A DNA stretch of 64,000 bases from the NCBI RefSeq assembly GCF_003018255.1, contig NZ_CP027440.1; one strand, written 5' to 3'. Position numbers and translations under genes: made by a program. The stretch is from Escherichia coli (GTDB lineage: Bacteria > Pseudomonadota > Gammaproteobacteria > Enterobacterales > Enterobacteriaceae). The notes below the pieces were generated by a model that made no database searches, was not told the DNA's origin, and saw nothing but the letters and a program-made list of their open reading frames with translations. Position 1 is the stretch's first letter. Each line of letters begins with the position of its first letter. Positions 14,025 to 48,593 of this stretch are shown one piece after another.

Positions 14025-15995
14025 TCAGAACGTATACTCGATACCTGCCCAGAAATTGCGACCTTCTTCAATAAACCCTTCACTGTAGGCATATTTGGTA
14101 TCAAACAGGTTATTGACCGACGCATTGACGCTGAAGCCATGACCTAAGGTGTAATCGGCTCGAATGTGAGTCACCGCAAAACCGGCGGCTTTTTGTGAAC
14201 CGTCACTGTTGCTGTAGCTGGAGGAACGCGCCTCTTCCGACAGCGTTACGCTTAACGGCTCCCACGGTTTGAGAGTCATCCATGCGGTCATTGTCTGCGT
14301 TGGCAGATCGGTTATCTTGCCGATGTCTTTGCGTTTGGCATCAGCGTGGATCAGGGCGTAGCTCAATCCTACATCCAGTATATTGCTGATTTTCCCCTTA
14401 ATACCGGCATCCAGACCGCTGTAATCCACCGTGCCGCTGTTCTGATTTTGAATGGTATCGGCATCGATATTGTGCGAGAGGATGGCATCACTCACCCGGT
14501 TATAGTAAACGCTGACCTCAAACCCCCAGTCGTGCGTGAAGGCACCATTCCAGGTTAAATCCACCCCGCGCGCGCGTTCCGGCTTGAGCTGCGGGTTAAC
14601 AATCGCTATCTGGTTATACGCAGGTTTGGACGTGGTATAGCGTTCTTTCAGCGTCGGAAAGCGTGTGCGGTCATAGTACGAAAGCGCCAGCGTGTCTTCA
14701 TTGGCAAAGTGGTATTTCCCCATCACCTGCCAGTTAAAAGCTGACTGATTGTTGTCGTCATAATGGGTGATACTGCCATCTTTCTCATGTTTTTTCGCTT
14801 CTACGCTATCGCGCCAGTCATAGCTGATTCCAGCCACGACATCGACATTATCGGCAGCAGCCCATTGATATTCACTGGCGAGCGACCAGGTACGATCTTC
14901 ATAGCGATCGTAAGCGGCGTGCGGCGCACCTTTTTCCCGGTGTACGTCATCTTTCCAGTTAACGGCAAACGACAGCAGATCGTTTTCACGCACATCGGCT
15001 GCCAGTTGTAACCCGGCACCGTCGCTGTAATCGGAATAATGGCTGTAGCTGCCTTTTTTATTTTTCAAATCAGCCAGCGAGTTGTACATCATCAGCGTAT
15101 TTTCAAAGGTATCGCGATACAGCCGACTTTTCAGGGTAAAACGATCGTTTAGTTGGGTCGTTCCCTGATAATAAAAACTTTCTTTGTCATACTCTGGCCA
15201 CTGCCAGTAGCGTGATTTTTGACCACTATTTCCACTGTATGGCGGATTATCTTTTTCACCATCCTGCTTAATGTAAGTCAATGTGTATTCATCGTTTTCG
15301 CGTGGTGTAAAACCGAGCTTCACAATGCCGCGTTTATCATCAGCCGATGAATTAATCATCTTGCCGTGTTTGCCTGCAATATCATTATTTACACCATGCG
15401 GCAGGCCGAGAAAATCCTGCTTTAGCTGGCTACCGCTGACTTGCAAATACCCCAGATCGCTGCTGGCGGCAAATGAAGCATGCATATCGTAGGCATTGTC
15501 CTGGCTACGGCTCCATCCCTGGCGATATCCCAGATTTGCTTCCAGAGGTTTTGTTGGCTTCTGGGTGGTGATATTAATGGCTCCGCCCATCTGATTAGGC
15601 CCCTGAAGCAGCGACGAATACCCTTTGGAAACTTCAACTGCCCCCAAATTGTTGGTCAGAATCCGCGCCAGATCGAGGTTGCCGTCATAGGGAACATAAA
15701 TGGGCACACCGTCGAAATAGACTGGCACCTGACGACTATCAAAGCCACGAACTTTGACCTGTTCTTCGTTGCGGCTACCTGACTTTTGCAGCACCACGCC
15801 GGGGACGACACTTAATGCCTGAGCGACATTCTGTTTATCCAGGGCCTTCATGGTGGGGTGATCGAGAACGGTGGTCGTCGTCGATGATACCGGACTGGAC
15901 CATACGGTCAGCGTGTCACTCTCCTGAGCCGCTAAGGCCTGCTGGGTAAAGGCAAGTGATAATGCTGTGCAGAGATAACGTTTTTTGAGTCTCAT
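14025..15995 (-). CDS. TonB-dependent outer-membrane receptor (accessory, not in K-12 layout)
   Basis: About 656 aa with signal peptide MRLKKRYLCTALSLAFTQQALA, TonB-box-like DTLTVWS near the mature N-terminus, and a C-terminal aromatic residue (…AGIEYTF); start set to the second Met. Confidence 0.85.
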   Translation of the reverse strand: MRLKKRYLCTALSLAFTQQALAAQESDTLTVWSSPVSSTTTTVLDHPTMKALDKQNVAQALSVVPGVVLQKSGSRNEEQVKVRGFDSRQVPVYFDGVPIYVPYDGNLDLARILTNNLGAVEVSKGYSSLLQGPNQMGGAINITTQKPTKPLEANLGYRQGWSRSQDNAYDMHASFAASSDLGYLQVSGSQLKQDFLGLPHGVNNDIAGKHGKMINSSADDKRGIVKLGFTPRENDEYTLTYIKQDGEKDNPPYSGNSGQKSRYWQWPEYDKESFYYQGTTQLNDRFTLKSRLYRDTFENTLMMYNSLADLKNKKGSYSHYSDYSDGAGLQLAADVRENDLLSFAVNWKDDVHREKGAPHAAYDRYEDRTWSLASEYQWAAADNVDVVAGISYDWRDSVEAKKHEKDGSITHYDDNNQSAFNWQVMGKYHFANEDTLALSYYDRTRFPTLKERYTTSKPAYNQIAIVNPQLKPERARGVDLTWNGAFTHDWGFEVSVYYNRVSDAILSHNIDADTIQNQNSGTVDYSGLDAGIKGKISNILDVGLSYALIHADAKRKDIGKITDLPTQTMTAWMTLKPWEPLSVTLSEEARSSSYSNSDGSQKAAGFAVTHIRADYTLGHGFSVNASVNNLFDTKYAYSEGFIEEGRNFWAGIEYTF

Positions 15996-16020
15996 AGAAT
16001 AAATTCCGTTTAACAAAGAA

Positions 16021-16875
16021 TTAAATAGAGGCTGCGGGTTGCAGACTGACTTTAATGTCAGCTGGTGTCGCGTAATAAGGCGCGGAGGTAATAAAAAGGC
16101 GAATGCCGCAGTCGAGGTAATTTTTGAGTGTTGTCAGATTAATTCCGCCGGTCAGAGCCAGCGTGCAGTGAGGAGCCAGCGACGGTGCTATTTGCGCAAT
16201 TTCAGTTGCCTGTTGCGGATTAAATTTGTCGAGCTGAAGTACGTCTGGTTGCGCGCGTAACGCGGCGATTGCCTCTTTCGGCGTGTCGGCTTCAACAACT
16301 ATTTTCTTCTCGGGTGCGTGGCGGCGTAACTGATTGATTGCGCCTGACCAGTCCTGATTGTCATGAAGAAAATGACGGTGGTTGGCAAACAATAATATGG
16401 TTTCCGCACATCCGGCACGATGAATCAGTCCTCCGGCAGCCAGAATTGCCTGCGAGGCCAGTAAGCGGGTGCCCGGAATTGCTTTTCGGGTGCAGGCGAT
16501 ATTGCCATCAGGGTAACGTTCACGAAGTAACGCCAGCATTTGAGCGAGATAATCAGAAACACCGCAACTCCACTCCAGCACATTCTGGACTGCCTTCCAT
16601 CCCTGATGAAGTGCTGCGGCATTACCCTGCGCACGGATTAGCCGCTGACCCGCGTTCGCTTGTGAACCGTCGCTGACTGCGTCATCAATAGTTAATCCCA
16701 GCGTAGTTAACATCTTACACGCGACAGAAATTCCGCTGACGCAGCCGCCCTGACGGTGAAAAAACTCTATATAGCCATGCTGGTGTCCAATATTTAATGC
16801 TCGCGTGGTCAGGTCACCGCCCTGGATATCTTCCAGAAGTAACGCATCGATTTGTGCCTGAGAAAGGAAAATCAT
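16021..16875 (-). CDS. ModD / NadC-like (quinolinate phosphoribosyltransferase family) protein
   Basis: 284-aa ORF with blocks that align by eye to E. coli NadC (LLEDIQGGDLTT; TRKAIPGTRLLASQAILAAGG..NHR; VEADTPKEA..LQLDKF; LALTGGINLTTL); 4-nt ATGA overlap with the upstream methyltransferase gene. Confidence 0.75.
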   Translation of the reverse strand: MIFLSQAQIDALLLEDIQGGDLTTRALNIGHQHGYIEFFHRQGGCVSGISVACKMLTTLGLTIDDAVSDGSQANAGQRLIRAQGNAAALHQGWKAVQNVLEWSCGVSDYLAQMLALLRERYPDGNIACTRKAIPGTRLLASQAILAAGGLIHRAGCAETILLFANHRHFLHDNQDWSGAINQLRRHAPEKKIVVEADTPKEAIAALRAQPDVLQLDKFNPQQATEIAQIAPSLAPHCTLALTGGINLTTLKNYLDCGIRLFITSAPYYATPADIKVSLQPAASI

Positions 16876-17684
16876 CGCAGTGCCTCTTGCGGTACGCTAT
16901 CCCACCAGATGAGCGCCCAGTCGCGGCTGGCAGGGGCGAGGGCACGAGCATCTTGTTGTTGATACCAGCGATATAACCGCTCACGCTCATCGTCGTTAAG
17001 CGCGCCCAGACTCCAGCTGACGTTCTGCTCAAAACGTTCCCAGGTGCTGTTATCCTGTTGGCAATTTTGTCCGCGGATAAAATCAACGTGAGCATAAATT
17101 CCCATCTGATACAGGACGTTGAGCGCAAAGATATAGTTGGGTAATTCGACCACTTCCCGACCAGCCGCCCGCTGAATGGCTGGAGAGACGAACGAGGTGC
17201 TGACCAGATGAGTCGTATAGACGCGAAGCCGTGCCTGATTATTCAGTTTGCTCATTGCCTGGCGCATATCAGCCACCAGAGTGGAGCGGGAAGCCACGGC
17301 AATATCGCAGCGTGGCAGGTCACTCCAGTCCTCTTCCCAGGCGCGCTGGATCCAGTGGACATTGTCTGCCTTTAGCGCGGCGGCGCGACGGGCGGCAACG
17401 TTCAGCATCCCCTGACTGTAATCAACGCCATAAATCGTCGTGAGTTTGTCCGCCAGCGCCAGCGATACGGTACCCGGTCCGCAGCCCATATCGAATAAGG
17501 TTTGCGCGCCTTGCAGGTCAATTTTTGAGGTCAGTTGTTGCAGGTAGCTGTCCGTCGGCGAGGCGCAATTTTCCGCCATTTTTTCCGCCCGTTGATCCCA
17601 GTGATCCGGCGTTTTTTCTGTGCGATGGGCCAGCCTGAGTTGCTGAAGGTAAAGGTCTGCAAAATCAATATCGTCAATGAGCAT
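16872..17684 (-). CDS. Class I SAM-dependent methyltransferase
   Basis: 270-aa ORF with Rossmann motif I LFDMGCGPGTVSLALA and a downstream acidic motif (VDYSQGML); operonic between the ABC ATPase and the ModD-like gene. Confidence 0.75.
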   Translation of the reverse strand: MLIDDIDFADLYLQQLRLAHRTEKTPDHWDQRAEKMAENCASPTDSYLQQLTSKIDLQGAQTLFDMGCGPGTVSLALADKLTTIYGVDYSQGMLNVAARRAAALKADNVHWIQRAWEEDWSDLPRCDIAVASRSTLVADMRQAMSKLNNQARLRVYTTHLVSTSFVSPAIQRAAGREVVELPNYIFALNVLYQMGIYAHVDFIRGQNCQQDNSTWERFEQNVSWSLGALNDDERERLYRWYQQQDARALAPASRDWALIWWDSVPQEALR

Positions 17685-17693
17685 GATTTTTCC

Positions 17694-18452
17694 TTAGTGC
17701 TTAATTGCAGAGAGGTGATGGTGAATCTGGTCGGCAGAAACCCGGTACAGGGCAGCCAGTTTTTTCGTTGTTAACTGTTCGGTCGGTAAGCCTTGTGTTA
17801 CTCGTCCATCTGGCTCTACCTGGATAATGCTGTCGGCAATGGCGTTTGCATGGAGCGGATGATGAGTCGACATTAACATTGTCATGCCGTTATTTTTGAG
17901 CTGCGCCAGCGTGTCCAGAAGTTGGATCTGATGACCGAAATCGAGGCTAGAGGCAGGCTCATCCAGTAATAACAAGCGCGGTTGCTGGACGAGTGCACGG
18001 GCGATTAAAGCCAGCTGACGTTCACCGCCGCTAAGCGTATTCCAGCGTCGTGTCGCCAGATGCAAAATGCCCAGCTTTTCCAGTTGCTCCGTTGCTTTCA
18101 GGCGTTCTTGCTTACCGGGAACGGAAAAAGCGCCTATGGTGGGGGCCTGGCCCATCAACACCATATCCAGCACACTAAAAGCAAAAATGCCGTCGTGCGC
18201 CTGCGGCACCCAGGCAATAGCCTGCGCGCGCTGGCGATGGCTGAGTGTCTGCACAGGGAGGCTATCCAGTAAGATCTCGCCTTTTAATAACGGTATAACG
18301 CCAAGAATGGAGCGCATGAGTGTGGTTTTGCCGCAACCATTGGCTCCTAACAGACAACAAATTGTTCCTTGCGACAGGGTGAAGGACACGTCGCGTAGCA
18401 CCGGATGGCGGGAGTAACCCAGAGACGCATGACGGACGGCAAGCAAAGTCAC
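17694..18452 (-). CDS. ABC transporter ATP-binding protein (FecE/FepC-like)
   Basis: Walker A GANGCGKTT, ABC signature LSGGERQ and Walker B LLLLDEP are present; start assigned to GTG in a GTGA overlap with the permease stop (the track ORF is extended to 18590). Confidence 0.8.
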   Translation of the reverse strand: MTLLAVRHASLGYSRHPVLRDVSFTLSQGTICCLLGANGCGKTTLMRSILGVIPLLKGEILLDSLPVQTLSHRQRAQAIAWVPQAHDGIFAFSVLDMVLMGQAPTIGAFSVPGKQERLKATEQLEKLGILHLATRRWNTLSGGERQLALIARALVQQPRLLLLDEPASSLDFGHQIQLLDTLAQLKNNGMTMLMSTHHPLHANAIADSIIQVEPDGRVTQGLPTEQLTTKKLAALYRVSADQIHHHLSAIKH

Positions 18453-19429
18453 TGGCGACCTCCGCGTAACAACAAAAACAGGAAAAACGGTGCGCCAACA
18501 AAAGCGGTCAGAATGCCAAGTGGGATTTCTGTTGTTCCAATGCTGCGTGCCAGCGTATCGGTAAGCAGGAGCAGAATCGCGCCAGTACACATTGCCATGG
18601 GCAACAGCTGCTGATGGTTATGACCGGTCAACAAGCGGGCAATGTGCGGAACGACCAGGCCGACCCAACCAATTATGCCCGCTATTGCTACCGTGCTGGC
18701 GGTGATGAGTGTGGCACAGACAATCAATCCAAAGCGCAGACGTGTCACGTTCAGTCCCAGCGAACGGGCTTCGTCGTCGGAAAGCGTGAGTAAATTCATG
18801 CGCCAGCGGAGAAAAAACAGGGGCAAGGAGCCTATGAGAATGATCGGTGCAGCATAGCAGAGATCGCGTAAGGTCACGGTGGACAGCCCCCCCAGCAACC
18901 AGAAGGTAATTGACGGTAACTGGGTATAAGGATCGGCCAGCGTTTTTATTAGCGATATCCCCGCTCCGCACAACGTTCCTAACGCAATGCCTACCAGCAC
19001 CAGGGTTAAGATCGGATCGTGGCGGGTCACCCGACGCGTAATCAACCAGACGCCCGCGACCACCATCAGCCCGCCGCAAAATGCGTACAGCTGGATGTAA
19101 ACAATGGATAATCCCCACAGGATTGCCGCGCAGGCACCAAGTCCGGCACCGGCGGAGACGCCTAAAATATCCGGTGACACTAAGGGATTACGGAACATTC
19201 CCTGATAGGTGGTTCCGGCCCCTGCCAGCGCCGCGCCCAGAAACAGCGCAGCAAGAATACGCGGCACGCGGATTTGCCAGAAGACAATTTGTTCCTGCAC
19301 AGTAACATTTTCTTGACGAAGAATGAGCGCCAGCAGTTGCTGCATATCGAGATGATAAGCCCCACTTACGGCGGCAAAAGTGATACTGATAGCTGCCAGC
19401 AGCAAAATACATCCGTTTACGGTTCTCAT
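18449..19429 (-). CDS. ABC transporter permease (FecCD/BtuC family)
   Basis: 326-aa polytopic membrane protein typical of iron-chelate/B12-type permeases; start overlaps the stop of the upstream binding-protein gene by 1 nt. Confidence 0.8.
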   Translation of the reverse strand: MRTVNGCILLLAAISITFAAVSGAYHLDMQQLLALILRQENVTVQEQIVFWQIRVPRILAALFLGAALAGAGTTYQGMFRNPLVSPDILGVSAGAGLGACAAILWGLSIVYIQLYAFCGGLMVVAGVWLITRRVTRHDPILTLVLVGIALGTLCGAGISLIKTLADPYTQLPSITFWLLGGLSTVTLRDLCYAAPIILIGSLPLFFLRWRMNLLTLSDDEARSLGLNVTRLRFGLIVCATLITASTVAIAGIIGWVGLVVPHIARLLTGHNHQQLLPMAMCTGAILLLLTDTLARSIGTTEIPLGILTAFVGAPFFLFLLLRGGRQ

Positions 19430-20451
19430 TAGCTCGCCACCAATTTTTGATAGTCGGCGTCACTTAATGGGCAATGCCAGAACAGTTGGGCGTAATGCTG
19501 CATGTCACTTTTAAACTGGCGATTGATGGCGGGATCCAGCCAGGCGTGAAGTCTGCGTAATCCCAGAAGACGGTTGATTCCCGGCGGGGCATCCAGCCAG
19601 CCAAAGGGCAGGCCACTTAAAAATAAGATGCGTTGTTCCGCAACCGCTTTCACGCCCTGCCAGAGAGGATCACGACGAATAAAATCTGCAGTAACGGCCT
19701 CCTGAACCAGAATAATATCCGGCTGCCAGCGCAGGAGATTTTCCATGGAAACCTGTGTCAGACCGTGGCGATCGGCTATTTGCGCGACGTTGTGCAAACC
19801 TAATAATTCCGCCGCCTCGGTATGCAACGAACCCTGTAAGCCCGTTTCCAGCCCTCGAGGACCGCGCGCAGCATAAAAGCTGAGATTAGCGGCGGGTGAG
19901 GTGGCGAATGCCTGAGCTTCACCAACGAAGCGGCTGGCGAGATTGGCTTGTTCTGCGGCGCGGTGCTCTTCGCCTAACGTTTTGCCAAGCGTTGTTAACT
20001 GTTCTGCTGATTGTTCCAGTTTCCCGTTAAGCAATAACCAGGGTATTTGTGTCTGTTCGCTAACCTGCCGTGCCTGGGAGATCCAGGTTTCATCCGTATT
20101 GCCGCAATCAACGACCAAATCGGGATGTAACGCCATAAGCCCTTCCAGCGAGAGTGTACTGGCGCGCCCGGCGAGTCGTCCCAGCCTGGGGAACTGGCGA
20201 ATGTGCTCTGGCAATGGAATTAATGCCTGACGGGCAAAATCAAAAGAGGAAAAACCGACCATTTTTTCTGGCGCGACAGCCAGCAATAGTAAATCGGCGG
20301 GCGCGCCTGCGCTGACGATGCGTGTAATGTTTTGGGCTTCGGGAAGCGTCAGTGAGGCCCAGAATTTGACTGATTGTGCAAAGGACGGCAGATGATGCAG
20401 GAACAATGTCGACGCAAGAATCTGTGTAAACCTCCGTCTGGTTAGTGACAT
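19429..20451 (-). CDS. Periplasmic substrate-binding protein (class III, FecB/BtuF-like)
   Basis: Signal peptide MSLTRRRFTQILASTLFLHHLPSFA with a twin-arginine-like TRRRF; start chosen at the Met preceded by AGGA 7 nt upstream; first gene of the operon. Confidence 0.75.
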   Translation of the reverse strand: MSLTRRRFTQILASTLFLHHLPSFAQSVKFWASLTLPEAQNITRIVSAGAPADLLLLAVAPEKMVGFSSFDFARQALIPLPEHIRQFPRLGRLAGRASTLSLEGLMALHPDLVVDCGNTDETWISQARQVSEQTQIPWLLLNGKLEQSAEQLTTLGKTLGEEHRAAEQANLASRFVGEAQAFATSPAANLSFYAARGPRGLETGLQGSLHTEAAELLGLHNVAQIADRHGLTQVSMENLLRWQPDIILVQEAVTADFIRRDPLWQGVKAVAEQRILFLSGLPFGWLDAPPGINRLLGLRRLHAWLDPAINRQFKSDMQHYAQLFWHCPLSDADYQKLVAS

Positions 20452-20463
20452 AAGTAATATCCT

Positions 20464-20482
20464 GATAATTAAAACCGCTATA
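20464..20482 (-). promoter_or_regulatory. Candidate Fur box upstream of the accessory transport operon
   Basis: GATAATTAAAACCGCTATA matches about 13 of 19 positions of the Fur consensus GATAATGATAATCATTATC by hand alignment; a TTGACA hexamer lies further upstream on the operon strand. Confidence 0.3.
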
Positions 20483-20787
20483 TACTTACACATATAGCGA
20501 AAAAGATCATGTTTGATGTCAAAATTTGTCTAAAGAGACGGAATGATTTGCTTGTTGCTTAAATAACACTTTGTTCCACAAGAAAATTGTCAGGGAGAAT
20601 GGGGAGTGGGGGAAAATATAAATAGAGGTGTAATGATTAACAAGTTGATAAAATAAAATTAAAATCTTCTCTAATAAAAGAAAATAAAGGCATAGACCGT
20701 AGAAAGAGTGGTATTTGGTATTTCGTGGTGAAGAAAGAGCAATGCCAATTTTATGCACGTAATGGCATTGCTCGATATACAGTAAAG

Positions 20788-22485
20788 TTAAGGCGTAGGT
20801 TCCGCCTCATTTTGTTTTACCGGCTGTGTTGTTGATTCACTGAGTGGACGCGTCGCCGGAACATTGTCGCACGGTTGCTCTTTCGGGCAGATCAAATCCA
20901 GCATTTTCAGCGTCACGCCATTGGTCCAGCCAAAGCCATCCTGTAATGGATATTCGCCACCGCCGCCCCCTGTTCCGGTGGTGCTGACATCATATTTTTC
21001 CACCAGCTTTTTCTCCCGGTCATAGGTGTGCTGAACATTGGTCAGGAAGTGCCAGCTAATGTCCATCGCCACCTCTTTTTGCCCGTAGTTTTGTAATCCT
21101 TCTGTCGCGACCCACTGCAACGGTGCCCAGCCGTTTGGCGCATCCCATTGTTGCCCACTTTTCACCGACGTGGTGTTCAGGCCGCCTGGTTGCAGCAGAT
21201 GTGTTTTCGTCGCCGTCGCCATTTTGCTGGCGCGATCTTTCGCTGCCGCATTGACGTACAGCGGGAACAGGGCGGCCGCGGTTAACTGATTGCGCACTTT
21301 ATGACTTTTCAGGTCGTAATCGGCATACCAGCCTTGTTGATCGTTCCACAGGTATTTTTCGATCCCTTTTTGACGGGCATTCGCCAGCGTTTCGTACTGG
21401 TTTGCCATCGCGTTATCTCCGGCAGCTTTGCTGGCGCGGGCGAGGATTTTTTCCATTTTAAACATCAGGCTGTTCAGATCGACCGGTACGATGCTGGTGG
21501 TGCGTAAGGTATTTAACTGCTGCGGATTGTCCATCCAGCGCGAGCTGAAATCCCAGCCAGACGCAGCGGCAGAGCGCAGGTCGCGGTAAATTTCAGTGGC
21601 AGGTCGATTCGGATTGCTTTTGGCGGTGGCAATATCTTCCACCCATGACTCTGGTCGTGGCGTATCGCGATCGTCCCAGTAGCGGTTGAGAAGGGTACCA
21701 TCCTGAAGTTTGACAACGCGTTTTTCCTGTTGTCCGGCTTGCAGGTTTTCAACACCGTCCATCCAGTAAGCATATTCTTTTTGCATTTGCGGCAGGTATT
21801 GCTTCAACGCGGCATCGCCTTCATGCTGCGCCAGTAACTCTACCATCAGGGCAAAGAATGGCGGTTGTGAGCGGCTTAAATAGTAACTGCGGTTGCCGTT
21901 GGGAATATGCCCGTAAGTGTCTATTTCATGAGCAAAATTGGCCACCATATCCGCGACTTTATCCCAGTGACCACTTTCGGCAAGCCCTAACATGGTGAAG
22001 TAACTGTCCCAGTAATATACCTCGCGAAAACGTCCGCCCGGCACAACATAAGGTTCCGGCAGCGGTAACAGAGAATCCCATTTTTCGGTATTTTCGGTAG
22101 AACGCGTTAATACCGGCCAAAGTCCGTCAATATGTTCGCGTAGTGATTGCCCCTCTGGCGGAACATATTTCTCGCCCTCTTTCGGCAGGGTGAAATTGAC
22201 GTTAACGAAATGGCGTAGATCAAATCCGCTCTGGTTTTGCTGCATCCGATAATCAGCAAGGATCATCAGCGGATCGCTGTTCGGCACGGCATCGGCAAAG
22301 GTTTTTTGGTCCGGAAAAAGTTTGGCGTTTTGCACATCATTAAACAGCGGCCCTAATAAAATATCAGGCGGCTGTGGCGTTACCGGTGTTTCTTCTGCCT
22401 GCACCGATAGCGCAGCGAAACACAAAAAGATGCAGGCTGGAATTAACGCCATTTTTAGCGGGCGAGAAGCTGCGGGGGATTTCAT
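20788..22485 (-). CDS. treA: Periplasmic trehalase
   Basis: 565-aa ORF recognised as TreA (signal peptide, then [22 protein letters not shown]). Confidence 0.95.
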
Positions 22486-22805
22486 CAATCATTCTCCTTT
22501 GGCGAAACCGAATAAAACGGTATTCAAGTATCAGAAAACCTTAGTTCAGGATCGCACTAGCTGCATGATCGAAATCTCATTCTGCGAACGGTCAGGCATT
22601 TTAGAAAAGGGAATTAAAGGGATAAATAACGTCGAAATAGAGTGATCAAATAACGTCTGTTTGTTAGCCAGCCAGCGGCGTTGGGTTCGCGATTAGCGCC
22701 GAAAAAATCATCATGATTTGGTAAAAAATATAACAGGTAGTTAAAAATCATCCGTGCAGAGTAAATAGCCGGATGGCATCAGAACGATGCCATCCGAACG
22801 GTGGT

Positions 22806-48328: not shown

Positions 48329-48593
48329 GTAAACCTCTTCCTTCAGGCTTTAAATGAGCAATAACCTTAATGAATGTGACGATACATTCTGGAATGGCAG
48401 TATTCTCGGCTATTGGCTGAAGTATACCCATACCCGGAAAGAGTTACTCCTTATTTGCCGTGTGGTTAGTCGCTTTACATCGGTAAGGGTAGGGATTTTA
48501 CAGCACCGTGAAAAATCTCATAATTTTTATGAAATCACTGTACTCACTATGGATAATGATAAATATCAATGATAGATAAAGTTATCTTATCGT

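Follow-up and report, generated by a model that had tools for sequence, protein, structure and literature searches.

Analysis of a 64,000-nt stretch of Escherichia coli chromosome, from contig NZ_CP027440.1 (hereafter the window), indicates that the intergenic DNA in front of a six-gene operon is likely to be a ModE-repressed promoter-operator, and that the operon most likely responds to the supply of molybdenum and not of iron, in so far as sequence comparison can tell. The earlier note on this DNA had proposed a candidate metal-responsive promoter at this place and had regarded Fur control as fitting an iron-chelate uptake function. That the region is a promoter-operator, and a metal-responsive one, is in both respects very probable, whereas the assignment to Fur and iron found no support.

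A candidate ModE operator upstream of the operon

The intergenic spacer contains, at 20476-20499 on the minus strand, a 24-bp inverted repeat, CGCTATAT-GTGTAAGT-ATATAGCG, which is considered the core of a candidate ModE operator. Its arms form a perfect 8+8 inverted repeat, CGCTATAT-N8-ATATAGCG, and together with its flanks it makes up a 28-mer at 20474-20501, a feature that had been overlooked in the earlier note. A TTGACA hexamer precedes the palindrome at a distance of 17 nt, and 24 nt separate its other end from the start codon (ATG) of the first gene of the operon. The consensus of E. coli ModE sites is ATCGNTATATA-N6-TATATANCGAT (PMC545781). Expressed as the number of matches at the 20 specified positions of this consensus (ModE score), the palindrome reaches 17/20, the next best site in the 64 kb having a score of 14 and the scores 15 and 16 being empty in the window. 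Likewise, the core pattern CGNTATAT-N8-ATATANCG has its sole zero-mismatch match in the window at 20476-20499, all other matches requiring 3 mismatches. It speaks against ModE that the palindrome is AT-rich and lies inside an AT-rich spacer; a score of 17 was reached in none of 2000 shuffles of this spacer, and a score of 15 in 0.9% of them.

The ModE-controlled K-12 upstream regions of modA, moaA, dmsA and napF have ModE scores of 16, 16, 17, and 18, respectively, with one site each and runners-up not exceeding 12. The allele of the palindrome found in O157 Sakai scores 18/20, and the ent, fep and fhuA spacers of K-12 are without a ModE box (scores of 10-13). Of 5426 complete E. coli genomes, 5391 have the modE gene; the window itself is without it.

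Genomic context and gene content of the operon

On the minus strand, treA (20788-22488) precedes a spacer of 336 nt and six co-directional genes; ymgE and ycgR come after the six-gene operon. The spacer is AT-rich, with 30-32% GC against 52-54% in the flanking genes. Its upstream limit is a terminator-like hairpin, detected by scan at the end of treA and its stop codon (20789-20809, minus strand); this hairpin is readable on either strand, and in the treA orientation it is followed by a poor T-run. The spacer also contains a 79-aa open reading frame with a GTG start (20519-20758, minus strand), whose equivalent in Sakai is the 66-aa hypothetical ECs_5716 and which is probably no gene, since conservation of the stretch does not extend to E. 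albertii. In the distal spacer, at 20615-20665, two promoter-like matches were seen, TTAACA-17-TAAAAT on the plus strand and TTGTTA-17-TATATT on the minus strand; with 1.5 such matches expected from shuffles, two represent no excess.

All six operon genes lie on the minus strand. The first encodes a substrate-binding protein (SBP) of the PF01497 family (19429-20451), 340 aa long and starting with the twin-arginine-like signal MSLTRRRF. It is accompanied by genes for a FecCD/BtuC-type permease (18449-19429), an ABC ATPase, the "fepC" of the cluster name (17694-18452), a SAM-dependent methyltransferase, "yc73" (16872-17684), the quinolinate-phosphoribosyltransferase-like protein ModD (16021-16875), and a TonB-dependent outer-membrane receptor, "prrA" (14025-15995). 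The start of the SBP gene was placed at ATG 20451, as also called by PGAP; the longest open reading frame would begin at ATG 20493 and encode 354 aa. A Shine-Dalgarno motif AGGA (20460-20463, minus strand) is found 8 nt before ATG 20451, and CAGGA is kept in the Enterobacteriaceae orthologues. Residues R5 and R6 of MSLTRRRF are invariant in 20 orthologues, and Tat export, as predicted from such a signal, would be unusual for a FecB-type binding protein.

The closest solved relative of the permease is H. influenzae HI1471 (MolB), its best PDB match being 2nq2_A (E 8.9e-64, 219 bits), followed by FhuB with 176 bits. ModD was assigned with TIGR01334 (501 bits against a cutoff of 179), and its relatives in the PDB are QPRTases, proteins of the quinolinate-phosphoribosyltransferase fold. 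The SBP matches MolA (3psa) marginally, over residues 214-286 (73 residues) only and with E 1.3e-7, and by this test is not a MolA orthologue; its closest PDB relative is the uncharacterised periplasmic binding protein 4pag. For the TonB receptor, no relative of solved structure was obtained at E<=1e-10. In H. influenzae, molABC-modD is a secondary molybdate transporter cluster (PMC3928620), and in Z. mobilis modD and modE are found beside two TonB transporters in the nif cluster (PMC8594446). Gene-order comparison of 51 orthologous loci revealed no regulator gene travelling with the operon.

The spacer and operon are present in 2147 of the 5426 complete E. coli genomes (~40%), with 90-100% identity, and in K-12 ycgY stands where the operon is. 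The cluster, which extends over 14025-20451 of the window, is the one known from the literature on UPEC, EHEC and APEC, where it is listed as putative iron uptake. O157 Sakai has the same gene order and spacer at the ymgE-treA locus, the genes being ECs1693-1699 (Z1961-Z1966, S-loop#83/OI#55). An iron-uptake role was proposed for the prrA-modD-yc73-fepC cluster, identified as ECs1693-1699 (PMC1890555), and a paper of 2026 still describes it as "possibly" involved in iron uptake (PMC12928451). Because treA also adjoins the operon in Citrobacter, Enterobacter, Klebsiella and Raoultella, the locus looks ancestral and not like a recently acquired island. In E. coli ST2747 (NZ_CP007392.1; L003, 3013-3058), the whole promoter-operator is lost by a deletion that also truncates the binding-protein gene at its 5' end, leaving what is annotated as a partial pseudogene; the genes downstream are intact.

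Conservation of the ModE box in orthologous loci

The 51 loci were fetched from contigs of one genome per species, by means of an alignment of 20 orthologous SBPs. Loci from Escherichia through to Providencia and Proteus share the order SBP-permease-ATPase-methyltransferase-ModD-receptor; ModD is absent in Shewanella and a few other loci. About 40 of the 51 loci, ranging from Escherichia to Shewanella, Providencia and Proteus, have a ModE box situated 17-32 nt upstream of the SBP gene. In 29 loci this box, at 17-32 nt from the SBP start codon, is the top ModE match of the whole locus of ~19 kb, with scores of 15-20/20; in about ten further loci the box before the SBP gene is second only to a ModE box situated directly before the TonB-receptor gene. 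Such a second box (16-20/20), directly before the receptor gene, was identified in Providencia, Proteus and Shewanella fodinae. It is located ~4.5 kb downstream of the SBP start (L028, L031, L035, L036, L038, L039, L041, L043 and L052-L054), or 3.7 kb in L034. Three beta-proteobacterial loci (L048-L050), in which the receptor gene comes first, carry a ModE-like box of 15-18/20, located 80-240 nt upstream of where the receptor match begins. No ModE box was found in the distant Methylobacterium homologue (L047), which is without methyltransferase, ModD and receptor genes, nor in a C. braakii locus with a replaced 5' end.

The flanks of the box diverge completely between genera, while the ModE box stays, and within Escherichia the conserved block extends only from about the -35 element to the ATG. 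Among the 36 distinct boxes, C3-G26 and T6-A23 are invariant.

Promoter geometry

Two descriptive points of the earlier note, that the region upstream of the first gene is AT-rich and that it carries TTGACA on the operon strand, were borne out: the GC content is 30% against 52-54% in the flanking genes, and the hexamer, a 6/6 match to the -35 element, lies at 20517-20522 on the minus strand, 17 nt upstream of the CG that opens the ModE box. As such, TTGACA occurs 13 times in the window. It is plausibly a real -35 element here, because every Enterobacteriaceae orthologue has TTGAYN upstream of the palindrome at a distance of exactly 17 nt, as seen in Escherichia, Citrobacter, Yokenella, Klebsiella, Raoultella, Enterobacter and Symbiopectobacterium. 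The -10 element is less evident. No hexamer with A at position 2 and T at position 6, as expected for sigma-70, lies 16-18 nt downstream of TTGACA, which is why TTGACA was missing from the consensus promoter scan. By geometry, the putative weak -10 would be CGCTAT (20494-20499, minus strand), which matches at 2/6 positions and coincides with the opening hexamer of the ModE box; an alternative, extended -10-like sequence, TGTAAGTAT, is situated inside the box spacer (20482-20490, minus strand).

The orthologues show several arrangements. Enterobacteriaceae, including E. coli, have TTGAYN-17-CGNTAT with a weak -10, while in Serratia H1w and Klebsiella BIGb0407 the arrangement is TTGACT/TTGACG-17-CATTAT (4/6), the -10 again falling on the opening hexamer of the box. 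A good sigma-70 promoter, TTGACT-17-TAATTT or TTGACA-17-TACCCT, is present in Providencia, Proteus and Shewanella; only 1-3 nt separate its end from the box, which would therefore cover the transcription start. In these three genera and Serratia, TTGACT or TTGACA is paired with a better -10. A weighted promoter scan gave no single best geometry in Enterobacteriaceae and clear promoters in Providencia, Shewanella and Serratia. In view of the poor -10 and the lack of a scan call in E. coli, the real start site could lie elsewhere. In every one of these geometries, a bound ModE dimer would be expected to occlude RNA polymerase, which argues for repression.

Alternative readings of the spacer

According to the iron reading, Fe2+-Fur would bind the 19-mer GATAATTAAAACCGCTATA beside the ribosome-binding site and, at high iron, repress an operon for the uptake of iron chelates; this is considered highly improbable. 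The 19-mer is located as described earlier, at 20464-20482 on the plus strand, ending 12 nt from ATG 20451, and the hand count of 13/19 to the Fur consensus was confirmed. It contains one perfect GATAAT hexamer (6/6), followed by two hexamers of 3/6 each; the sequence is not palindromic, and its right end (20476-20482, 7 nt) is part of the ModE palindrome. Fur matches were scored as plain match counts to the 19-bp consensus, with the chance level derived from dinucleotide-preserving shuffles of the 336-nt spacer: both strands of the 64-kb window hold 36 sites of at least 13/19, and 17-20% of the spacer shuffles reach 13/19. Four spacers of Fur-regulated iron-uptake genes in K-12 (fepA-fes, fepD-entS, fepB-entC and fhuA) reach 13-16 in this count, with fepA-fes at 13. 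The score alone is thus a weak test that does not exclude Fur, and conservation was therefore also used. The GATAAT hexamer is not kept, being CTTTTC (operon strand) in E. albertii and also replaced in Citrobacter, and the best Fur scores in the orthologous upstream regions vary from 8 to 15 at no common position. Annotation and literature, in which the genes are putative iron-uptake genes (PMC1890555, PMC12928451), are on the side of Fur. Nevertheless, the chance-level score, the hexamer structure and the lack of conservation, taken together and not the score alone, led to rejection of the Fur box, and the 19-mer is judged to be a chance match. Fur control is not supported for a 19-mer that is at chance level, is not conserved and overlaps a better ModE palindrome. 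The earlier note had also allowed for another metal regulator, naming Zur and Mur-like or NikR-like proteins. This part of its proposal is retained in so far as ModE, responding to molybdate, is indicated, whereas the scans for Zur and NikR were blank: the consensus scores for Zur, NikR and MntR were all at or below the shuffle mean.

The palindrome could instead function as RNA, either as a terminator or attenuator hairpin that insulates the operon from treA read-through or as part of an unknown riboswitch leader, a reading to which we assign a very low probability. It is listed by the terminator scan (20500..20475, 11 pairs, then TTTTAATTAT), the E. coli hairpin has a predicted stability of -10 kcal/mol with z = -3.5, values in Enterobacteriaceae range from -10 to -14 kcal/mol, and a T-run follows the box in many of them. 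However, both arms and the outer CG are conserved as sequence and not merely as pairing. Paired cells amount to 85.9% in the 36 distinct boxes against 83.6% in column shuffles, no covariation in excess of column composition being seen, and the position given as 'N' in the consensus is unpaired in 13 of the 36. Symbiopectobacterium, Providencia, Proteus and Shewanella keep the box but have no T-run after it. Furthermore, the stem has 3 G-C pairs only, and the stability falls to -5.5 kcal/mol in Shewanella and to -2.2 kcal/mol at modA. A search of 20300-20900 at permissive threshold returned no Rfam family, including Moco and cobalamin riboswitches, but only noise (E >= 2.3, far below gathering scores), and the left arm would not be fully transcribed if the TTGACA promoter were used. 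On account of these pair counts and of the T-run, which is not conserved, a selected RNA structure was set aside as the main function. The hairpin is most readily understood as a consequence of the symmetry of the operator, and a minor insulating role against treA read-through is possible in Enterobacteriaceae. It is likewise very improbable that a different, uncharacterised dimeric regulator occupies the palindrome or that ModE acts here as an activator. ModE does activate at moaA, dmsA and napF, and the weak canonical -10 is typical of activator-dependent promoters. Against another regulator, the match to the ModE consensus equals that in known ModE-controlled regions and no regulator gene accompanies the operon. 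As for activation, the box lies downstream of the -35 element and 24 nt from the ATG, and in Providencia and Shewanella 1-3 nt after a good -10, which is the position of a repressor and not of an activator. Repression by ModE is retained as the preferred reading of the palindrome.

Elsewhere in the window, the narX-narK intergenic region contains GATAATGATAAATATCAAT (48543-48570), which with 14/19 is among the six best Fur matches in the window; the same spot scores 14/20 to the ModE consensus, and nar expression reportedly responds to ModE.

Comparison with known ModE- and Fur-controlled systems

The closest parallel is offered by E. coli modABC. The palindrome of modA in the K-12 genome, CGTTATAT-TGTCGCCT-ACATAACG, has the same 8-N8-8 architecture, and its distance to the start codon is 19 nt, compared with 24 nt in the operon. 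In both cases the box precedes an operon for a periplasmic binding protein and an ABC importer, and by analogy the same repression logic would be expected (PMC12327845, PMC11672702). Unlike modABC, which encodes an oxyanion importer, the operon described here combines a type II (BtuCD/FecCD-like) importer with a TonB receptor, a methyltransferase and ModD, and its site is nearer to the consensus (17-18 against 16). The sites of K-12 moaA, dmsA and napF carry the same motif with scores of 16-18/20, and the left arm of the moaA palindrome, CGCTATAT-ACATGATT-ACATAGCG, is identical to that of the operon's site. At moaA, dmsA and napF, ModE activates from sites upstream of the core promoter, whereas the operon's site is situated between the -35 element and the ribosome-binding site.

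With the H. influenzae molABC-modD system (HI1469-HI1475; MolBC-A) the operon shares a permease nearest to HI1471 (219 bits), an adjacent modD, and a PF01497-type binding protein working with a type II importer (PMC3928620). It differs in its SBP, which is marginally similar to MolA, and in the additional TonB receptor and methyltransferase. The Fur-controlled siderophore promoters (fepA-fes, fepD-entS, fepB-entC and fhuA) resemble the operon in preceding genes for a TonB receptor and a FecBCD-type ABC importer and in having an AT-rich operator overlapping the promoter, and the label "putative iron uptake" given to the operon in the literature points in the same direction. In contrast to the operon, they contain arrays of GATAAT-like hexamers, e.g., GATAATGAAATTAATTATC at 16/19, and have ModE scores of 10-13, against 17 in the operon spacer, where the Fur score is at chance level.

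A further parallel comes from M. acetivorans, in which ModE was shown by gel shift to bind promoter DNA of ma1234-1224, an operon labelled "Fe ABC transporter", and a second "Fe ABC transporter" operon, ma1200-1197, carries the ModE motif (PMC12327845). As in the case reported here, ABC operons annotated as iron transporters are preceded by a ModE palindrome, located there ~33 bp before the start codon (PMC12327845). The M. acetivorans motif is different (RTTATGT-N8-RCATAAY), outer membrane and TonB receptor are missing, and the likeness considered here is one of annotation and of a ModE palindrome before the operon.

Proposed regulation and its implications

In the proposed mechanism, when molybdate is plentiful, a ModE-molybdate dimer would occupy the palindrome and cover the -10 and start-site region, so that RNA polymerase would be blocked, as at modABC (PMC12327845, PMC11672702). 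When molybdenum is scarce, ModE would leave the site and the operon would be transcribed. This corresponds to the repression of Mo-uptake genes by molybdate-bound ModE (PMC12327845, PMC11672702). Binding of ModE at 20476-20499, the direction of regulation, the exact -10 and start site, and Mo or W as substrate are all points that we infer. The presence of ModD, the MolB-like permease, the parallels in Z. mobilis and M. acetivorans, and the ModE control proposed here together suggest a system induced by molybdenum starvation, whose substrate could be the free oxyanion or a Mo/W complex. More tentatively, and with somewhat less confidence than would favour it, the operon may serve ModE-repressed, TonB-dependent uptake of molybdenum or tungsten, probably in ligand-bound form, with ModD and the methyltransferase processing the carrier in the cytoplasm. 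Such a pathway would provide enteric bacteria with an energised route for molybdenum across the outer membrane and would assign a function to ModD.

Our literature search found no link of the prrA-modD-yc73-fepC cluster to ModE or molybdate, and the operon would appear, from its sequence, to be an apparently unreported addition to the ModE regulon rather than a Fur-controlled iron system. ModE operators are well understood; what is apparently unreported is a conserved box before an operon for a TonB receptor, an ABC importer and ModD, from Escherichia to Shewanella and Proteus. The case also illustrates that a Fur box matched by hand in AT-rich DNA can mask a far better site for another regulator. 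The cluster, present in many Enterobacterales, has been listed for more than two decades among the putative iron-uptake loci of pathogenic strains. If ModE control is true, an accessory locus that is often cited for EHEC, UPEC and APEC would have to be reassigned from iron to molybdenum homeostasis, the function of ModD would become accessible to experiment, and TonB-energised uptake of molybdenum would be indicated in enteric bacteria.
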